Made by a program: the position numbers and the translations under genes. From Naegleria gruberi (Eukaryota), in the NCBI GenBank assembly GCA_000004985.1, contig GG738932.1: a stretch of DNA of 64,000 nt; one strand, given 5' to 3'. The notes beneath the pieces were generated by a model that was not told the DNA's origin, did not search any database, and worked only from the letters and a program-made list of their open reading frames with translations. Below are positions 6,001-64,000 of the stretch, piece after piece; the stretch's first letter is position 1; the number at the start of each line of letters is the position of its first letter.

Positions 6001-9000
6001 NNNNNNNNNNNNNNNNNNNNNNNNNNNNNNNNNNNNNNNNNNNNNNNNNNNNNNNNNNNNNNNNNNNNNNNNNNNNNNNNNNNNNNNNNNNNNNNNNNNN
6101 NNNNNNNNNNNNNNNNNNNNNNNNNNNNNNNNNNNNNNNNNNNNNNNNNNNNNNNNNNNNNNNNNNNNNNNNNNNNNNNNNNNNNNNNNNNNNNNNNNNN
6201 NNNNNNNNNNNNNNNNNNNNNNNNNNNNNNNNNNNNNNNNNNNNNNNNNNNNNNNNNNNNNNNNNNNNNNNNNNNNNNNNNNNNNNNNNNNNNNNNNNNN
6301 NNNNNNNNNNNNNNNNNNNNNNNNNNNNNNNNNNNNNNNNNNNNNNNNNNNNNNNNNNNNNNNNNNNNNNNNNNNNNNNNNNNNNNNNNNNNNNNNNNNN
6401 NNNNNNNNNNNNNNNNNNNNNNNNNNNNNNNNNNNNNNNNNNNNNNNNNNNNNNNNNNNNNNNNNNNNNNNNNNNNNNNNNNNNNNNNNNNNNNNNNNNN
6501 NNNNNNNNNNNNNNNNNNNNNNNNNNNNNNNNNNNNNNNNNNNNNNNNNNNNNNNNNNNNNNNNNNNNNNNNNNNNNNNNNNNNNNNNNNNNNNNNNNNN
6601 NNNNNNNNNNNNNNNNNNNNNNNNNNNNNNNNNNNNNNNNNNNNNNNNNNNNNNNNNNNNNNNNNNNNNNNNNNNNNNNNNNNNNNNNNNNNNNNNNNNN
6701 NNNNNNNNNNNNNNNNNNNNNNNNNNNNNNNNNNNNNNNNNNNNNNNNNNNNNNNNNNNNNNNNNNNNNNNNNNNNNNNNNNNNNNNNNNNNNNNNNNNN
6801 NNNNNNNNNNNNNNNNNNNNNNNNNNNNNNNNNNNNNNNNNNNNNNNNNNNNNNNNNNNNNNNNNNNNNNNNNNNNNNNNNNNNNNNNNNNNNNNNNNNN
6901 NNNNNNNNNNNNNNNNNNNNNNNNNNNNNNNNNNNNNNNNNNNNNNNNNNNNNNNNNNNNNNNNNNNNNNNNNNNNNNNNNNNNNNNNNNNNNNNNNNNN
7001 NNNNNNNNNNNNNNNNNNNNNNNNNNNNNNNNNNNNNNNNNNNNNNNNNNNNNNNNNNNNNNNNNNNNNNNNNNNNNNNNNNNNNNNNNNNNNNNNNNNN
7101 NNNNNNNNNNNNNNNNNNNNNNNNNNNNNNNNNNNNNNNNNNNNNNNNNNNNNNNNNNNNNNNNNNNNNNNNNNNNNNNNNNNNNNNNNNNNNNNNNNNN
7201 NNNNNNNNNNNNNNNNNNNNNNNNNNNNNNNNNNNNNNNNNNNNNNNNNNNNNNNNNNNNNNNNNNNNNNNNNNNNNNNNNNNNNNNNNNNNNNNNNNNN
7301 NNNNNNNNNNNNNNNNNNNNNNNNNNNNNNNNNNNNNNNNNNNNNNNNNNNNNNNNNNNNNNNNNNNNNNNNNNNNNNNNNNNNNNNNNNNNNNNNNNNN
7401 NNNNNNNNNNNNNNNNNNNNNNNNNNNNNNNNNNNNNNNNNNNNNNNNNNNNNNNNNNNNNNNNNNNNNNNNNNNNNNNNNNNNNNNNNNNNNNNNNNNN
7501 NNNNNNNNNNNNNNNNNNNNNNNNNNNNNNNNNNNNNNNNNNNNNNNNNNNNNNNNNNNNNNNNNNNNNNNNNNNNNNNNNNNNNNNNNNNNNNNNNNNN
7601 NNNNNNNNNNNNNNNNNNNNNNNNNNNNNNNNNNNNNNNNNNNNNNNNNNNNNNNNNNNNNNNNNNNNNNNNNNNNNNNNNNNNNNNNNNNNNNNNNNNN
7701 NNNNNNNNNNNNNNNNNNNNNNNNNNNNNNNNNNNNNNNNNNNNNNNNNNNNNNNNNNNNNNNNNNNNNNNNNNNNNNNNNNNNNNNNNNNNNNNNNNNN
7801 NNNNNNNNNNNNNNNNNNNNNNNNNNNNNNNNNNNNNNNNNNNNNNNNNNNNNNNNNNNNNNNNNNNNNNNNNNNNNNNNNNNNNNNNNNNNNNNNNNNN
7901 NNNNNNNNNNNNNNNNNNNNNNNNNNNNNNNNNNNNNNNNNNNNNNNNNNNNNNNNNNNNNNNNNNNNNNNNNNNNNNNNNNNNNNNNNNNNNNNNNNNN
8001 NNNNNNNNNNNNNNNNNNNNNNNNNNNNNNNNNNNNNNNNNNNNNNNNNNNNNNNNNNNNNNNNNNNNNNNNNNNNNNNNNNNNNNNNNNNNNNNNNNNN
8101 NNNNNNNNNNNNNNNNNNNNNNNNNNNNNNNNNNNNNNNNNNNNNNNNNNNNNNNNNNNNNNNNNNNNNNNNNNNNNNNNNNNNNNNNNNNNNNNNNNNN
8201 NNNNNNNNNNNNNNNNNNNNNNNNNNNNNNNNNNNNNNNNNNNNNNNNNNNNNNNNNNNNNNNNNNNNNNNNNNNNNNNNNNNNNNNNNNNNNNNNNNNN
8301 NNNNNNNNNNNNNNNNNNNNNNNNNNNNNNNNNNNNNNNNNNNNNNNNNNNNNNNNNNNNNNNNNNNNNNNNNNNNNNNNNNNNNNNNNNNNNNNNNNNN
8401 NNNNNNNNNNNNNNNNNNNNNNNNNNNNNNNNNNNNNNNNNNNNNNNNNNNNNNNNNNNNNNNNNNNNNNNNNNNNNNNNNNNNNNNNNNNNNNNNNNNN
8501 NNNNNNNNNNNNNNNNNNNNNNNNNNNNNNNNNNNNNNNNNNNNNNNNNNNNNNNNNNNNNNNNNNNNNNNNNNNNNNNNNNNNNNNNNNNNNNNNNNNN
8601 NNNNNNNNNNNNNNNNNNNNNNNNNNNNNNNNNNNNNNNNNNNNNNNNNNNNNNNNNNNNNNNNNNNNNNNNNNNNNNNNNNNNNNNNNNNNNNNNNNNN
8701 NNNNNNNNNNNNNNNNNNNNNNNNNNNNNNNNNNNNNNNNNNNNNNNNNNNNNNNNNNNNNNNNNNNNNNNNNNNNNNNNNNNNNNNNNNNNNNNNNNNN
8801 NNNNNNNNNNNNNNNNNNNNNNNNNNNNNNNNNNNNNNNNNNNNNNNNNNNNNNNNNNNNNNNNNNNNNNNNNNNNNNNNNNNNNNNNNNNNNNNNNNNN
8901 NNNNNNNNNNNNNNNNNNNNNNNNNNNNNNNNNNNNNNNNNNNNNNNNNNNNNNNNNNNNNNNNNNNNNNNNNNNNNNNNNNNNNNNNNNNNNNNNNNNN

Positions 9001-57628: not shown

Positions 57629-58657
57629 CACATTTGGAATGACTTGATATTCGACGTTTTTCTTGGCAGAGTCCAAAATAGTTGCCAAAGAACACTTGCT
57701 ATTCACAGTAACTATTTGTTTGATATTGTGGGACAAGCTGTTGTAAACAATGATAGAATGTTGATCATCATTGGTAACATCCAAACTATCTGATAAGACA
57801 CTATTACTATCAATTTCCAAAACGTGTTGAGTGAGTGATTTGTGAAGGGACTTCATATCTTGAATGACTGAAGCAAGTTGGGACATGTAATCATTATAAA
57901 CATGTCTTCTACAAGTACCAGTAATGGCATCGTGGTGTTGTACCAACCCAACAGTTTGTCTAGATCTTTGAATAGTATTAAATGTGTCTACCCAGTTGAA
58001 CATGCTATTTTGGTGAGTCATCTTTACTCTTGCAAGAGCATACAACATTTCAGTTGATGTGAGCGCTGATTCAGCAGTTCTGGCAGACTTTTTAAGGTTT
58101 GGTAAGGAGGTAAAGTAACCAGTCCAATAACTATCTGGGTAGTCAGCATATGGTACAAAGTCTTGTTTAACGACTGGGAACTTGGTACTGCTACCGTAGT
58201 TTTTGAATAATTCATTAAAGTATTCAGTAGTGGTGGCATATTGAACCTTAACTCCTAGATCATGATTATCCAAAAACTGAATAACTCTATCCATATTTGA
58301 AAATTGGGCTCCGGCATCTCTGAATTTAAAGTCGTCGCCCATTGGAACAAGAATGTATGGTGTTCTGTATGCTGAAGATCTCTTCCTCATGTCTTCAATA
58401 AATTCGTGAGCTTTTCTTTCCACATTTTGATCATTGATAAATTCCGCACCTGGTTTTTCAAAATCAAAATTTCTAGGACTAGAATAGTGAGTATGAAGTA
58501 CTTCAGTGAAGATGGTATTGTTTGAGCTGATGTTCCAAATAAATTCCAATGCCTTTTCGTCCTTCATTACAGATTTGATGGAAAAGTGAACTCTGTTAAT
58601 TACGAGAGCATCAAATCCCATTTGACTGAATATTTGTGGAATTTTTCCGTCATGACC
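57629..58657 (-). CDS. GH38 class II alpha-mannosidase, downstream exon (partial; the open frame runs off the sequenced island into the N run at its 3' side)
   Basis: I translated the minus strand codon by codon from 58657 down to 57629: 343 codons with no stop. It begins GHDGKIPQIFSQMGFDALVINRVHFSIKSVMKDEKALEFIWN... and continues ...AYRTPYILVPMGDDFKFRDAGAQF...YPDSYWTGYFTSLPN...TVGLVQHHDAITGT...EYQVIPNV. The blocks LVPMGDDFKF, DSYWTGYFTS and QHHDAITGT match the conserved GDDF(R/K)F, NYWSGYYTS and QHHD(G/A)ITGT blocks of lysosomal/Golgi-type GH38 mannosidases (compared from memory, not by a search). The six-frame track misses this ORF because the fragment contains no Met start; its 58024-58239 entry is a different, spurious frame. 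Confidence 0.85.
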
Positions 58658-58706
58658 CTTAATTCATCATCATATATTAATCTTTCCTCGAGATGTGAAA
58701 ACTTAC
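58658..58706 (-). other. Spliceosomal intron (49 nt), phase 0, 5' splice site GTAAGT, 3' end ...TTAAG
   Basis: On the minus strand the sequence reads GAT CCT TTT | GTAAGTTTTCACATCTCGAGGAAAGATTAATATATGATGATGAATTAAG | GGT CAT GAC GGA. Reading through gives ...IDPFVSFHISRKD followed by a stop. Removing these 49 nt joins ...AWQIDPF to GHDGK..., which restores the universally conserved GH38 motif (A)W(x)IDPFGH and the long downstream ORF. A possible branch-like sequence TTAAT lies about 20 nt from the 3' end. The acceptor is AAG rather than the usual YAG. Confidence 0.75.
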
Positions 58707-59013
58707 AAAAGGATCAATTTGCCAAGCAACTCTCGGTCTCACTCCAAATCTTCTCAAAAGATATTCATGACCTACAGTCATTGAGTTAATGATTGAAGTG
58801 TATGATGCACAAGCTTCATCTGTTTGAATCCAACCTCCTCCGACAAATTCGAATCTATTTGTTTTAATTAGCTTTTTCACTTGTTGTTGTCTTGGTGCTG
58901 GTTGTTGTTCGAACCACTCCTTAAAGTAGAGAACATCACCCCACACATATCTTGTATGTGGTTTTTCCCAATAATTGACCAATAACACTGTCCAAAATGA
59001 GAAGGTTCTGATG
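58707..59013 (-). CDS. GH38 class II alpha-mannosidase, upstream exon (partial; 5' side truncated by the 50-N gap)
   Basis: The minus-strand frame is open from the gap edge and reads ...FWTVLLVNYWEKPHTRYVWGDVLYFKEWFEQQPAPRQQQVKKLIKTNRFEFVGGGWIQTDEACASYTSIINSMTVGHEYLLRRFGVRPRVAWQIDPF. The block RFEFVGGGW...DEA...RPRVAWQIDPF corresponds to the conserved RLEF(x)NGGW(x)MNDEA...RPRVAW(x)IDPFGHS region of lysosomal/Golgi alpha-mannosidases. The expected N-terminal region (signal/anchor and the HxHxDxGW metal-binding motif) is absent and must lie in or beyond the gap. Confidence 0.8.
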
Positions 59014-59063
59014 NNNNNNNNNNNNNNNNNNNNNNNNNNNNNNNNNNNNNNNNNNNNNNNNNN
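59014..59063. other. Assembly gap (exactly 50 N), placeholder of unknown true length inside or at the 5' side of the mannosidase gene
   Basis: Directly visible run of 50 n, flanked by coding sequence on the low side and AT-rich non-coding sequence on the high side. Confidence 0.95.
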
Positions 59064-59108
59064 AATCAATTCTTCATTACTATCAATATTGTACAAAACC
59101 CTAATTAA

Positions 59109-59114
59109 TATAAA
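59109..59114 (+). promoter_or_regulatory. TATAAA element in an AT-rich intergenic region; candidate core promoter for the plus-strand gene starting at 59217 (about 108 nt upstream of its ATG)
   Basis: The sequence ctaattaaTATAAAtttaat is visible at 59101-59120. Downstream of it is an A-rich leader (aaaattgaaaaaaaacagaaaacataaactttaaaaaaaaaactcttaaaaATG). In DNA this AT-rich a TATAAA can occur by chance, and strand assignment is ambiguous. Confidence 0.25.
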
Positions 59115-59216
59115 TTTAATCTTGATCTCAATGATGTTTACAATGAACAACAAGCATTCCATTTCAAAATTGAAAAAAAACAGAAAACATAAACTTTAAA
59201 AAAAAAACTCTTAAAA

Positions 59217-59702
59217 ATGTCCCTCTGCAAAGACAATTGTGGTTTCTACGGCAATGACAATTACGAAGGTTATTGTTCAACATGCTATCGAAAGAGAAAT
59301 GCAAAACCAGGTGATGATCAATCATCGTTATCGGTAATTAATTCTACTCCAGTTTATACTCCACCAATGCCATCTTTCTCCTCCGATGAGGAATTGGCTG
59401 TTTTTATCAAATTGATCAGTAATATGCCAGAGATAACTTCTGGAAAGATTGATAATGTGTTGCAGACTTTGAATGTTTATTTCACTGAGAAGCAGGCAAG
59501 AGAATTGTTGACTGCTATTGGAAAGGTCACCTTGGATGGAAATAATTTCATTTATCATCATGCTGTGTATTGTAGAGTGGTGGATCGTTATAATTTACAA
59601 GAATGTTTTGGAGCTGAAGGATATTATTATGTTGCACGAGGAAAGAAACCTCAAGATGATTACAAAGTATGGGATCATCAACATTCATTCTTGAAACATT
59701 AA
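59217..59702 (+). CDS. A20-type zinc finger protein with a probable CUE/UBA-like ubiquitin-binding helical segment (161 aa, complete ORF ATG to TAA)
   Basis: The ORF runs from 59217 to 59702 with ATG in an A-rich context (aaaaATGtc). Residues 4-23, C-KDN-C-GFYGNDNYEGY-C-ST-C, fit the A20 zinc finger pattern C-x3-C-x11-C-x2-C, including the CGFYGN core seen in ZFAND5/6 and Rabex-5 A20 fingers. Residues about 57-98, DEELAVFIKLISNMPEITSGKIDNVLQTLNVYFTEKQARELL, resemble the CUE/UBA consensus (hydrophobic-x-M-(F)P ... I ... L ... NV ... LL). There are no AN1-finger Cys/His spacings in the C-terminal half. Codon usage agrees with the neighbouring genes. Confidence 0.8.
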   Translation: MSLCKDNCGFYGNDNYEGYCSTCYRKRNAKPGDDQSSLSVINSTPVYTPPMPSFSSDEELAVFIKLISNMPEITSGKIDNVLQTLNVYFTEKQARELLTAIGKVTLDGNNFIYHHAVYCRVVDRYNLQECFGAEGYYYVARGKKPQDDYKVWDHQHSFLKH

Positions 59703-59765
59703 ATTTCATTACAATTTTTCATATTGAAATTATTCTATTATGAAATTAAACAAAATATTGAACAT

Positions 59766-60599
59766 TTACTTAGTTTTAATACCGGCATTATCTTGGTGGA
59801 ACATTGGCAAGACACTAGGTCTGTCCTTTCTACCTCTTCTTCTCACCATCAAAGTGAGAGAAAGACAGCAGAATCCACAAACAGCAAGCAAGAGGGCAAC
59901 AATAACAAACACCCAGAATGGAACCTTTTCTCTTGGTGGTTTAGGAACTTGAGCAGCAGGAATCTTCCTGGTTTCGATTGGTTTTTCTTCCTTCTTTTCC
60001 TCAATAATATTAATCTTTTTATCTTCTTCTTCGGCAGTTCTAATTTCTTCTTCAGCAGTTTCCTCAACAGTTTCGTCATCTTCCAATCCCAAATCATTAA
60101 TTTCCTTATTGTTGGTATCTTCATCAACAGTGTCCTTTTTAGAGATTGGAACAAAACCTTTTCCACTAAAAGTCATTGCAGCAAAGTAAGATTTGATAGA
60201 TGTTGCAGGAAGGGTAATGGTGTATGGTGAAATACCACCAATGGCCAATAATTTTCTACCACCAGCATTCTTTTCCATTTCAGCAATAGCTTCATCAGAA
60301 AGGAAGACCCCTTCTTGATCGGTGTTTTGGCCTCCTTCGCCTTTGAGTTTAACTTCTTTAGTAAAATCAAATCTCATTACTGCATCCTTCTTGAATCTCA
60401 ACTTTCTCTTTTCCTCACTGACTTCATAAATGAGATTGAGAGAACGTTCTCTAAGATCAGAAACTTCAATACCCTCAGAGAAGAGAGTACTAAAATCAAT
60501 TGTTAATGGCTTAGATGGATGTAAATTTTGTAATCTAATAGCAACTTCATCAGAAGAAATACCTCTAGCCTGCAAGGAGATGATTTGAGCTGTGGATGN
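59766..60599 (-). CDS. Single-pass membrane protein, C-terminal 277 codons (partial; the frame is open to the edge of the N run, so the true start lies upstream in unsequenced DNA)
   Basis: The minus frame is open from 60599 down to the TAA at 59768-59766: ...STAQIISLQARGISSDEVAIRLQNLHPSKPLTIDF...MTFSGKGFVPISKKDTVDEDTNNKEINDLGLEDDETVEETAEEEIRTAEEEDKKINIIEEKKEEKPIETRKIPAAQVPKPPREK-VPFWVFVIVALLLAVCGFCCLSLTLM-VRRRGRKDRPSVLPMFHQDNAGIKTK. About 25 hydrophobic residues are followed by RRRGRK (positive-inside rule, so the C-terminal 27 aa are cytosolic). A roughly 60-residue Asp/Glu-rich stalk lies immediately N-terminal of the TM segment. Codon usage is consistent with the other genes (AGA, CCA, GGT, TTG). 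The 'M' the ORF track shows at 60575 is a TTG, and I treat it as an internal Leu, not a start. Confidence 0.6.
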   Translation of the reverse strand, partial: XSTAQIISLQARGISSDEVAIRLQNLHPSKPLTIDFSTLFSEGIEVSDLRERSLNLIYEVSEEKRKLRFKKDAVMRFDFTKEVKLKGEGGQNTDQEGVFLSDEAIAEMEKNAGGRKLLAIGGISPYTITLPATSIKSYFAAMTFSGKGFVPISKKDTVDEDTNNKEINDLGLEDDETVEETAEEEIRTAEEEDKKINIIEEKKEEKPIETRKIPAAQVPKPPREKVPFWVFVIVALLLAVCGFCCLSLTLMVRRRGRKDRPSVLPMFHQDNAGIKTK

Positions 60600-63500
60600 N
60601 NNNNNNNNNNNNNNNNNNNNNNNNNNNNNNNNNNNNNNNNNNNNNNNNNNNNNNNNNNNNNNNNNNNNNNNNNNNNNNNNNNNNNNNNNNNNNNNNNNNN
60701 NNNNNNNNNNNNNNNNNNNNNNNNNNNNNNNNNNNNNNNNNNNNNNNNNNNNNNNNNNNNNNNNNNNNNNNNNNNNNNNNNNNNNNNNNNNNNNNNNNNN
60801 NNNNNNNNNNNNNNNNNNNNNNNNNNNNNNNNNNNNNNNNNNNNNNNNNNNNNNNNNNNNNNNNNNNNNNNNNNNNNNNNNNNNNNNNNNNNNNNNNNNN
60901 NNNNNNNNNNNNNNNNNNNNNNNNNNNNNNNNNNNNNNNNNNNNNNNNNNNNNNNNNNNNNNNNNNNNNNNNNNNNNNNNNNNNNNNNNNNNNNNNNNNN
61001 NNNNNNNNNNNNNNNNNNNNNNNNNNNNNNNNNNNNNNNNNNNNNNNNNNNNNNNNNNNNNNNNNNNNNNNNNNNNNNNNNNNNNNNNNNNNNNNNNNNN
61101 NNNNNNNNNNNNNNNNNNNNNNNNNNNNNNNNNNNNNNNNNNNNNNNNNNNNNNNNNNNNNNNNNNNNNNNNNNNNNNNNNNNNNNNNNNNNNNNNNNNN
61201 NNNNNNNNNNNNNNNNNNNNNNNNNNNNNNNNNNNNNNNNNNNNNNNNNNNNNNNNNNNNNNNNNNNNNNNNNNNNNNNNNNNNNNNNNNNNNNNNNNNN
61301 NNNNNNNNNNNNNNNNNNNNNNNNNNNNNNNNNNNNNNNNNNNNNNNNNNNNNNNNNNNNNNNNNNNNNNNNNNNNNNNNNNNNNNNNNNNNNNNNNNNN
61401 NNNNNNNNNNNNNNNNNNNNNNNNNNNNNNNNNNNNNNNNNNNNNNNNNNNNNNNNNNNNNNNNNNNNNNNNNNNNNNNNNNNNNNNNNNNNNNNNNNNN
61501 NNNNNNNNNNNNNNNNNNNNNNNNNNNNNNNNNNNNNNNNNNNNNNNNNNNNNNNNNNNNNNNNNNNNNNNNNNNNNNNNNNNNNNNNNNNNNNNNNNNN
61601 NNNNNNNNNNNNNNNNNNNNNNNNNNNNNNNNNNNNNNNNNNNNNNNNNNNNNNNNNNNNNNNNNNNNNNNNNNNNNNNNNNNNNNNNNNNNNNNNNNNN
61701 NNNNNNNNNNNNNNNNNNNNNNNNNNNNNNNNNNNNNNNNNNNNNNNNNNNNNNNNNNNNNNNNNNNNNNNNNNNNNNNNNNNNNNNNNNNNNNNNNNNN
61801 NNNNNNNNNNNNNNNNNNNNNNNNNNNNNNNNNNNNNNNNNNNNNNNNNNNNNNNNNNNNNNNNNNNNNNNNNNNNNNNNNNNNNNNNNNNNNNNNNNNN
61901 NNNNNNNNNNNNNNNNNNNNNNNNNNNNNNNNNNNNNNNNNNNNNNNNNNNNNNNNNNNNNNNNNNNNNNNNNNNNNNNNNNNNNNNNNNNNNNNNNNNN
62001 NNNNNNNNNNNNNNNNNNNNNNNNNNNNNNNNNNNNNNNNNNNNNNNNNNNNNNNNNNNNNNNNNNNNNNNNNNNNNNNNNNNNNNNNNNNNNNNNNNNN
62101 NNNNNNNNNNNNNNNNNNNNNNNNNNNNNNNNNNNNNNNNNNNNNNNNNNNNNNNNNNNNNNNNNNNNNNNNNNNNNNNNNNNNNNNNNNNNNNNNNNNN
62201 NNNNNNNNNNNNNNNNNNNNNNNNNNNNNNNNNNNNNNNNNNNNNNNNNNNNNNNNNNNNNNNNNNNNNNNNNNNNNNNNNNNNNNNNNNNNNNNNNNNN
62301 NNNNNNNNNNNNNNNNNNNNNNNNNNNNNNNNNNNNNNNNNNNNNNNNNNNNNNNNNNNNNNNNNNNNNNNNNNNNNNNNNNNNNNNNNNNNNNNNNNNN
62401 NNNNNNNNNNNNNNNNNNNNNNNNNNNNNNNNNNNNNNNNNNNNNNNNNNNNNNNNNNNNNNNNNNNNNNNNNNNNNNNNNNNNNNNNNNNNNNNNNNNN
62501 NNNNNNNNNNNNNNNNNNNNNNNNNNNNNNNNNNNNNNNNNNNNNNNNNNNNNNNNNNNNNNNNNNNNNNNNNNNNNNNNNNNNNNNNNNNNNNNNNNNN
62601 NNNNNNNNNNNNNNNNNNNNNNNNNNNNNNNNNNNNNNNNNNNNNNNNNNNNNNNNNNNNNNNNNNNNNNNNNNNNNNNNNNNNNNNNNNNNNNNNNNNN
62701 NNNNNNNNNNNNNNNNNNNNNNNNNNNNNNNNNNNNNNNNNNNNNNNNNNNNNNNNNNNNNNNNNNNNNNNNNNNNNNNNNNNNNNNNNNNNNNNNNNNN
62801 NNNNNNNNNNNNNNNNNNNNNNNNNNNNNNNNNNNNNNNNNNNNNNNNNNNNNNNNNNNNNNNNNNNNNNNNNNNNNNNNNNNNNNNNNNNNNNNNNNNN
62901 NNNNNNNNNNNNNNNNNNNNNNNNNNNNNNNNNNNNNNNNNNNNNNNNNNNNNNNNNNNNNNNNNNNNNNNNNNNNNNNNNNNNNNNNNNNNNNNNNNNN
63001 NNNNNNNNNNNNNNNNNNNNNNNNNNNNNNNNNNNNNNNNNNNNNNNNNNNNNNNNNNNNNNNNNNNNNNNNNNNNNNNNNNNNNNNNNNNNNNNNNNNN
63101 NNNNNNNNNNNNNNNNNNNNNNNNNNNNNNNNNNNNNNNNNNNNNNNNNNNNNNNNNNNNNNNNNNNNNNNNNNNNNNNNNNNNNNNNNNNNNNNNNNNN
63201 NNNNNNNNNNNNNNNNNNNNNNNNNNNNNNNNNNNNNNNNNNNNNNNNNNNNNNNNNNNNNNNNNNNNNNNNNNNNNNNNNNNNNNNNNNNNNNNNNNNN
63301 NNNNNNNNNNNNNNNNNNNNNNNNNNNNNNNNNNNNNNNNNNNNNNNNNNNNNNNNNNNNNNNNNNNNNNNNNNNNNNNNNNNNNNNNNNNNNNNNNNNN
63401 NNNNNNNNNNNNNNNNNNNNNNNNNNNNNNNNNNNNNNNNNNNNNNNNNNNNNNNNNNNNNNNNNNNNNNNNNNNNNNNNNNNNNNNNNNNNNNNNNNNN

Positions 63501-64000
63501 NNNNNNNNNNNNNNNNNNNNNNNNNNNNNNNNNNNNNNNNNNNNNNNNNNNNNNNNNNNNNNNNNNNNNNNNNNNNNNNNNNNNNNNNNNNNNNNNNNNN
63601 NNNNNNNNNNNNNNNNNNNNNNNNNNNNNNNNNNNNNNNNNNNNNNNNNNNNNNNNNNNNNNNNNNNNNNNNNNNNNNNNNNNNNNNNNNNNNNNNNNNN
63701 NNNNNNNNNNNNNNNNNNNNNNNNNNNNNNNNNNNNNNNNNNNNNNNNNNNNNNNNNNNNNNNNNNNNNNNNNNNNNNNNNNNNNNNNNNNNNNNNNNNN
63801 NNNNNNNNNNNNNNNNNNNNNNNNNNNNNNNNNNNNNNNNNNNNNNNNNNNNNNNNNNNNNNNNNNNNNNNNNNNNNNNNNNNNNNNNNNNNNNNNNNNN
63901 NNNNNNNNNNNNNNNNNNNNNNNNNNNNNNNNNNNNNNNNNNNNNNNNNNNNNNNNNNNNNNNNNNNNNNNNNNNNNNNNNNNNNNNNNNNNNNNNNNNN
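60600..64000. other. Run of N (unsequenced / scaffold padding); no information
   Basis: Directly visible: every base from 60600 to 64000 is 'n'. Confidence 0.99.

Follow-up and report, generated by a model that had tools for sequence, protein, structure and literature searches.

An A20-type zinc finger protein of Naegleria gruberi with a predicted C-terminal domain that appears distantly related to DUF4476 and has relatives on giant-virus-like contigs

Proteins with A20 fingers are regarded as ubiquitin receptors, and in them it is the second module that sets the destination of the signal, an AN1 finger standing for proteasome shuttling and a Vps9 domain for endosomal Rab5 activation. A protein of 161 amino acids (aa) from Naegleria gruberi, encoded at positions 59217 to 59702 of a stretch of 64,000 nucleotides (nt) of contig GG738932.1 (GenBank assembly GCA_000004985.1; the whole stretch is referred to as the window), raises the question of what an A20 finger is joined to when neither of these modules is found. 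A preliminary description of the locus had answered with a CUE/UBA-like module and had suggested a possible minimal ubiquitin receptor with two different ubiquitin-binding parts. This interpretation was only partly supported. The finger was confirmed, while the remainder of the protein is, as judged from model and alignments, one compact, mostly helical domain for which no Pfam model exists, which is distantly related to DUF4476 on profile comparison and which recurs next to other ubiquitin-system modules as well as on contigs resembling those of giant viruses.

The reading frame, which extends from the ATG at 59217 to the stop codon at 59700-59702, and the peptide strings that had been quoted from it were all verified in sequence and translation. 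Due to an in-frame TAA upstream at 59190, position 59217 is the first possible ATG. The product is 100% identical over 100% of its length to a 161-aa 'predicted protein' annotated for N. gruberi (P0001). Orthologues in Naegleria lovaniensis (157 aa, on a 776-kb contig), Naegleria fowleri (159 aa) and two metagenomic Naegleria-like contigs (157 and 158 aa) are single uninterrupted reading frames that start with MS.CK.NCGF, finish with ...WDHQ.SFL and share the end point of the 161-aa protein. As the annotated protein comprises the same 161 residues and the orthologues are uninterrupted, the gene is complete and leaves no room for a spliced exon encoding AN1 or Vps9, a possibility that had been raised at the outset. 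The following features were delimited:

59217-59702, plus strand: complete single-exon coding sequence, 161 aa plus stop (list of open reading frames, identity to P0001, ends of the orthologues)
59220-59291, plus strand: A20-type zinc finger, residues 2-25 (Pfam PF01754, alignment to Rabex-5/ZNF216, orthologue identity)
59295-59354, plus strand: variable linker, residues 27-46, predicted to be disordered (orthologue identity, predicted local distance difference test, pLDDT)
59355-59699, plus strand: predicted single conserved globular domain, residues 47-161, without Pfam model (pLDDT, orthologue identity, profile search)
59391-59606, plus strand: DUF4476-like part of this domain, residues 59-130, with four predicted helices and the motifs Y-[FL]-T-x2-Q-A-R-x-L-L and Y-x-R-V-x-D-x2-N-L (hhalign, profile search)
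59559-59627, plus strand: family signature core, residues 115-137, H115-x4-R120-V121-x-D123-x3-L127-x4-G132-x-E134-G135-Y136-Y137 (alignment of 25 members)

The spacing of the N-terminal cysteines as read from the translation, C4-x3-C8-x11-C20-x2-C23, corresponds exactly to the pattern C-x3-C-x11-C-x2-C that had been claimed for the finger and fits the zf-A20 consensus Cys-x2-4-Cys-x11-Cys-x2-Cys. Residues 2-25 match Pfam zf-A20 (PF01754) over all of the model (positions 1-24 of 24) with 38.6 bits at a cutoff of 21.6 (E 9.6e-10), and no other Pfam family matches the 161-aa protein at E<=1. Among structures in the PDB, the finger aligns with Rabex-5 (2fid, 2c7m; E 5e-5, the best match) and with ZNF216/ZFAND5 (2kzy; E 1e-4), whereby the aromatic patch G9-F10-Y11-G12-N13 is aligned to GYYGN of Rabex-5 and GFYGN of ZNF216 (the CG[FY]YGN pair). 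Its identity among Naegleria orthologues amounts to 69-73%. By sequence comparison, with agreement well outside what chance would give, it is therefore confirmed as a genuine, canonical A20-type zinc finger. The A20-type finger of ZNF216 is a ubiquitin binder, and the aromatic pair following the second Cys of the Rabex-5 finger (Tyr25/Tyr26) is reportedly in contact with ubiquitin. On the side of ubiquitin, the Rabex-5 finger binds the polar patch around Asp58 (PMC1832185). By analogy, the finger of the Naegleria protein most likely binds ubiquitin as well.

Two well-described groups of proteins invite comparison. ZNF216/ZFAND5 and the plant SAP proteins are likewise small and consist of a near-identical N-terminal A20 finger (CGFYGN...C..C), a linker and a second module at the C-terminus; this module is, however, an AN1 finger. 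The absence of AN1 from the Naegleria protein had been recognized correctly, as Pfam AN1 (PF01428) yields no match at E<=1 in the 161-aa protein or at E<=10 in 25 members of its family, and the C-terminal 135 residues are devoid of a Cys/His pattern. Rabex-5/RABGEF1 (A20 plus MIU plus Vps9) also carries the finger at its N-terminus and provides the best sequence match in the PDB, but the Naegleria protein has no MIU helix after the finger, where the linker is non-conserved and non-helical in the model, and no match to Vps9.

Behind the finger, residues 27-46 are 5-15% identical among orthologues and have no secondary structure in the AlphaFold2 model (pLDDT 53-59). Residues 47-161 reach 63-66% identity among Naegleria-type orthologues, the best-conserved part being residues 106-140 with 66-83%. 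The C-terminal 60 aa, in which no motif had been recognized before, indeed match no Pfam family and yet include this best-conserved part. A single-sequence AlphaFold prediction gave a pLDDT of 41, while AlphaFold2 with the 25-sequence family alignment arrived at a mean pLDDT of 82, with values >90 over residues 51-150 (block means for residues 41-150: 84, 96, 96, 94, 96, 97, 91, 96, 96, 94 and 92) and helices at residues 57-68, 75-84, 91-100, 110-118, 132-137 and 153-159. On the basis of this model and the alignments, residues 47-161 are one compact, mostly helical domain with a Pro-containing C-terminal tail and not a CUE/UBA module followed by a tail.

The idea of a minimal receptor in which an A20 finger and a CUE/UBA module at residues ~57-98 each bind ubiquitin has in its favor the reality of the finger and the three successive short helices modelled in residues 57-100, which resemble CUE/UBA in this one respect but belong to the single larger domain. 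Sequence, profile and fold provide no similarity. Pfam CUE (PF02845) and UBA (PF00627) match none of the five close and 25 wider members at E<=10, and hhalign of the family profile against small reference alignments of manually entered sequences returned 0.4% for CUE and 0.1% for UBA. Neither of the signature motifs is conserved: the 'NMPE' likened to MFP reads NIRE, DMPE, QIKD, QMKD or RNKN in close orthologues, and the 'LL' that would represent the C-terminal di-leucine of CUE gives way to R, L, Q and others at position 98 across the family. An independent, compact three-helix bundle was not found either, since the best Foldseek match of the domain model in the PDB had an E-value of 1.3 and a probability of 0.14, so that no fold relative, enzymes included, was detected there. 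One of the two postulated ubiquitin-binding modules, the A20 finger, thus stands, while the other falls, and the dual receptor is largely refuted, with very little probability left to it. The finger is retained together with the C-terminal domain in the named eukaryotes, although this conserved pairing is not the one of A20 with CUE that had been expected.

PDB sequence-profile searches with narrow and wide family profiles likewise ended without significant match. A weak calmodulin match and the appearance of EF-hand-repeat proteins in the profile search described below prompted us to consider a degenerate EF-hand pair. This candidate was rejected: hhalign gave only 10.7% over 34 columns, PDB profile matches had E-values of just 0.09-0.29, EF-hand chains appeared in Foldseek only at noise level, and the EF-hand-repeat proteins were recovered as sums of many weak repeats confined to profile positions ~15-55.

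To define the family, a profile of residues 50-161 from five close members was used for an exhaustive hidden Markov model search of 1.84 billion representative proteins. It returned 35 matches at E<=1e-3, about 25 of which are small proteins sharing the core Y-[IL]-[YF]-x-H-[VA]-x-[YC]-x-R-V-x-D-[RK]-x-N-L-x4-G-[AV]-E-G-Y-Y; the others are multi-repeat proteins with EF-hand or DUF4476 repeats. N. fowleri and Anaeramoeba ignava were recovered in a second search, and a search with a subgroup carrying a U-box-like motif yielded just one further member. In none of the ~25 relatives is the domain region covered by a Pfam family, and PHROGs contained no match for the domain family. His115, Arg120, Val121, Asp123, Leu127, Gly132 and Tyr136 are invariant in 25 of 25 members, Glu134, Gly135 and Tyr137 occur in 24 and Pro145 in 23 of them.

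Such conservation of polar residues (His, Arg, Asp, Glu and two Tyr in 24-25 of 25 members) could also be that of a small enzyme, e.g., a hydrolase or transferase acting through His115, Asp123, Arg120 and Glu134, which the A20 finger would direct to ubiquitylated substrates. Position 119, Cys throughout the Naegleria set and Cys or Ser in 25 of 25 sequences of alignment A4 (Ser in 18), could be seen in the same light; it is, however, Ala or Pro in three further members (P0009, P0013 and P0024) and so does not provide a universal nucleophile. Cys119 as a conserved catalytic nucleophile was ruled out by this Ser/Ala/Pro variation across the family. Moreover, the invariant His is not kept in the homologous DUF4476 repeats, and the domain is small (about 110 aa), mostly helical and without fold match to any enzyme. 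We therefore regard an enzymatic function as improbable.

The DUF4476-repeat proteins recovered in the exhaustive search (E 1e-5 to 3e-4) were aligned along most of the domain, and hhalign of family profile A3 against 13 DUF4476 repeats gave 92.7% with E 4.2e-7 over 69 columns that correspond to residues 59-130. On this evidence the domain is, in that part, a distant relative of DUF4476 (PF14771). Common to both are Y-F/L-T-x2-Q-x-R-x-L-L and Y-x-R/x-V/I-x-D-x2-N-L/F. They differ in that His115, invariant in the family, is absent from DUF4476 repeats and in that the family has G-x-EGYY and a Pro-rich C-terminal extension where DUF4476 has a C-terminal helix. Pfam DUF4476 has no match in the 161-aa protein at E<=10, and the best-scoring family member, P0024, reaches 16 bits at a threshold of 22.5 bits; as this threshold is missed, the domain is not assigned to DUF4476. 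Comparison of the DUF4476 profile with the PDB returned no match, and no solved structure or function was found for DUF4476.

This kinship opens the possibility that the domain binds a ciliary or cytoskeletal partner. Naegleria builds its flagella de novo. DUF4476 forms the portion at the N-terminus of Lophotrochin, the product of a gene of spiralian ciliary bands (PMC7441323), and a DUF4476 protein resides at the ciliary tip of Tetrahymena and is lost from cilia in a FAP256 knockout (PMC9881849); nothing beyond these two cases was found in the literature on DUF4476. The homology is nevertheless remote, DUF4476 also occurs in multi-repeat proteins without other recognizable domains, and many members of the family are carried by giant viruses, which have no cilia. 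A role in cilia or flagella is accordingly considered very improbable.

The named eukaryotic members stem from N. gruberi, N. lovaniensis, N. fowleri, Anaeramoeba ignava (Metamonada) and, as transcript P0006, Lapot gusevi (Rhizaria), and every one of them has an A20 or A20-like finger at the N-terminus. The Pfam threshold for zf-A20 is exceeded in five Naegleria-type proteins and the metagenomic protein P0013, while P0010 from Anaeramoeba (19.6 bits) and the half-finger of P0006 from Lapot (13.9 bits) stay below it; in P0050 a finger C-x3-C...C-x2-C was identified by eye. Protein P0005 from a Logan contig (SRR26590651) apparently lacks A20, but immediately upstream of the called start a remnant of the finger, ...CGFYGHDRFDGYCSVCIK..., can be read in frame +2, from which it appears that the finger is ancestral there as well. 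Most other members consist of the bare domain (85-140 aa). Four proteins (P0027, P0033, P0034 and P0057) possess an N-terminal extension of ~200 residues starting with a U-box-like motif, and P0024 (236 aa) starts with a similar one (Pfam U-box 19.5 bits, threshold 21.4). The U-box-like N-termini of P0024, P0027, P0033 and P0034 were aligned to canonical U-boxes, for which manually entered reference sequences were used, by hhalign with 85% and E 6e-6; a plain sequence-profile search of the PDB with the U-box-like profile gave no match. Finally, a C-terminal RING exceeds the threshold in P0020 and P0052.

Three of these relatives deserve a separate remark. At the P0005 locus (L003:1-372), frame +2 contains ...RITQCGFYGHDRFDGYCSVCIKTSESRKC*, an A20 remnant with three of four Cys that has no in-frame ATG and is out of frame with the domain; this could reflect an assembly frameshift, an unrecognized intron or a decaying finger. 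The Anaeramoeba ignava protein P0010 (181 aa) is named 'zinc finger a20 and an1 domain-containing stress-associated protein' at NCBI, although it has no AN1 according to Pfam and its C-terminus is the family domain; the name was probably transferred from the finger alone. In protein P0052 (539 aa, in the same 90% cluster as P0020), the family domain lies between a MYND finger (37 bits) and a C-terminal RING (32.7 bits), the MYND finger being the third zinc-finger context of the domain; the contigs are GC-rich.

In relatives with RING or U-box-like modules the family domain adjoins these where a substrate-binding domain would be expected. The Naegleria protein might accordingly be a miniature atypical E3 ligase with the A20 finger exerting ligase activity and the C-terminal domain recruiting the substrate, and its relatives with U-box-like or RING modules might be the conventional versions. 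Precedent exists in RABGEF1, the E3 activity of which has been ascribed to its A20-type finger (PMC13061254). Such activity is, however, documented for A20-type fingers of very few proteins, nothing separates binding from ligase activity in the present case, and the U-box assignment is weak. We deem this explanation decidedly unlikely.

The bare and the U-box-like forms are encoded on contigs with dense, intronless and mostly orphan genes, among them genes for TFIIS, Rpb1, Rpb6, thymidine kinase, eRF1, a D5_N primase, glycosyltransferases and many ankyrin and F-box proteins. Judged from sequence, this gene content is that of giant viruses (Nucleocytoviricota). When a viral structure library was searched with Foldseek, the only matches above noise were Faunusvirus A0A3G4ZXS3 and A0A3G4ZW97 and Orpheovirus A0A2I2L5S0, with probabilities of 0.98-1.00 and marginal E-values of 0.03-0.08, the best having 26% identity over 89 columns. 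As structure-library matches, these proteins would be consistent with the presence of family members on giant-virus-like contigs; they differ in being longer (204-307 aa) and in that no A20 finger has been reported for them. Overall, the viral link of the family is well supported but not airtight.

Two of the contigs offer additional observations. On a 213-kb giant-virus-like contig (L009:8481-11020), the gene for P0057 (U-box-like motif plus domain) is located immediately downstream of a gene that weakly matches zf-RING_UBOX, and several genes for F-box-like and ankyrin proteins and a D5_N primase gene are found nearby; this neighborhood indicates clustering of ubiquitin-system genes on the viral contig. 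On the 85-kb contig with P0034 (L007), an eRF1 gene (6646-7857) adjoins genes for Rpb6, FtsJ and a 2OG-Fe(II) oxygenase, which suggests a Klosneuvirus-like giant virus encoding translation components.

That the domain occurs beside U-box-like and RING modules and, on its own, on giant-virus-like contigs suggests a target-recognition module of ubiquitin receptors or ligases that is also used by giant viruses. We tentatively favor the view that the Naegleria protein is a ubiquitin-dependent adaptor, a good possibility that falls somewhat short of an even chance. The finger would dock on ubiquitin, either free or attached to another protein, and the C-terminal domain, joined to the finger by the flexible, non-conserved linker of ~20 residues, would bind a specific partner or ligand via the polar cluster of His115, Arg120, Asp123, Glu134, Tyr136 and Tyr137. 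Stand-alone viral copies of the domain may then compete for the same partner.

Several points weigh against the adaptor. Any function of the C-terminal domain can only be inferred, its closest family, DUF4476, is without known function, and the invariant His/Arg/Asp/Glu/Tyr cluster would equally be expected of a small enzyme. Ubiquitin binding by the finger is extrapolated from other A20 fingers, and the binding modes of these differ. Model confidence for the finger is low (pLDDT 44-53 in the AlphaFold2 model from the 25-sequence alignment), as expected from the lack of zinc in the model and the shallow alignment. The link to ubiquitin modules stems from few sequences, with two calls that are below threshold or obtained with manually entered references, and most members contain no recognizable ubiquitin module, so that no obligatory connection of the domain with ubiquitin follows. 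Furthermore, an IMG/VR scan with the subgroup alignment gave 30 pattern matches and no confirmed relative, and the viral assignment therefore rests on the gene content of the contigs and the three structural matches (E 0.03-0.08). The probability not taken up by the adaptor and the explanations weighed above goes to something else.

A farther-reaching proposal, unlikely on balance, would see in the 'H-RV-D / GxEGYY' domain of 110 residues a hitherto unrecognized module of the ubiquitin system that serves target recognition, or possibly catalysis, and has moved between giant viruses and the protists they infect. Protists would pair it with A20, and viruses would use it alone or with a U-box-like module, thereby redirecting or mimicking ubiquitin signalling of the host; in this scenario, the Naegleria protein would represent the imitated host component or a domesticated viral gene.

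As for the genomic surroundings, 61,080 of the 64,000 bases of the window (95%) are N, located in blocks 1-57628 and 60599-64000 and in a scaffold gap of 50 N at 59014-59063. Real sequence is confined to 57629-59013 and 59064-60598 (2,920 nt, 35.5% G+C), and the gap between these parts, at a distance of 153 nt upstream of the ATG, leaves the reading frame untouched. Given the 100% identity of the protein to the N. gruberi 'predicted protein', the window is a short N. gruberi scaffold padded with N. In the database, the identical protein is found on two contigs, the longer of which has 502 kb, and the short scaffold may hence duplicate part of a large N. gruberi scaffold, either redundantly or as an allele. 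A GH38 alpha-mannosidase gene on the minus strand at 57629-59013 (Pfam Glyco_hydro_38N, 90.6 bits) is arranged head-to-head with the A20 gene. A 49-nt intron (GTAAGT...TTAAG, 58658-58706) interrupts its catalytic motif WQIDPF|GHDG, the gene is truncated by the left contig end and its 5' part is broken by the N gap. The convergent neighbor, also on the minus strand (59766-60598), has its stop codon at 59766-59768, 63 nt from that of the A20 gene, and is truncated by the right contig end. Its product has a region that is acidic and rich in Lys, and its C-terminus forms a transmembrane anchor (VPFWVFVIVALLLAVCGFCCLSLTLMV, then RRRGRK); it was not assigned to any Pfam family, the sole match being DotU below threshold (17.6 bits versus 27). 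The neighboring genes are not the same in N. gruberi, in N. lovaniensis and on the metagenomic contig and are thus uninformative, as expected for a eukaryote.

The protein itself is already present in databases as 'predicted protein' or 'A20-type domain-containing protein'. What appears to be new is the delimitation of the C-terminal 115 residues as one domain without Pfam model or detectable fold relative in the PDB and with a distant tie to DUF4476, and also the recurrence of this domain with the ubiquitin-system modules A20, U-box-like and RING. The same appears to hold for the distribution of the family, as deduced from sequence, over three eukaryotic supergroups and giant viruses. No paper describing the domain family or its pairings with ubiquitin modules was found in a literature search. 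We consider it a well-delimited and testable domain family with a suggestive virus-host distribution rather than a demonstrated new mechanism or a dual ubiquitin receptor. If the partner of the domain were identified, this would provide a function for a family of giant-virus orphan proteins and for the DUF4476 superfamily, and ubiquitin signalling mediated by A20 would gain a new output branch in deep-branching eukaryotes, among them the genus to which the pathogen N. fowleri belongs.
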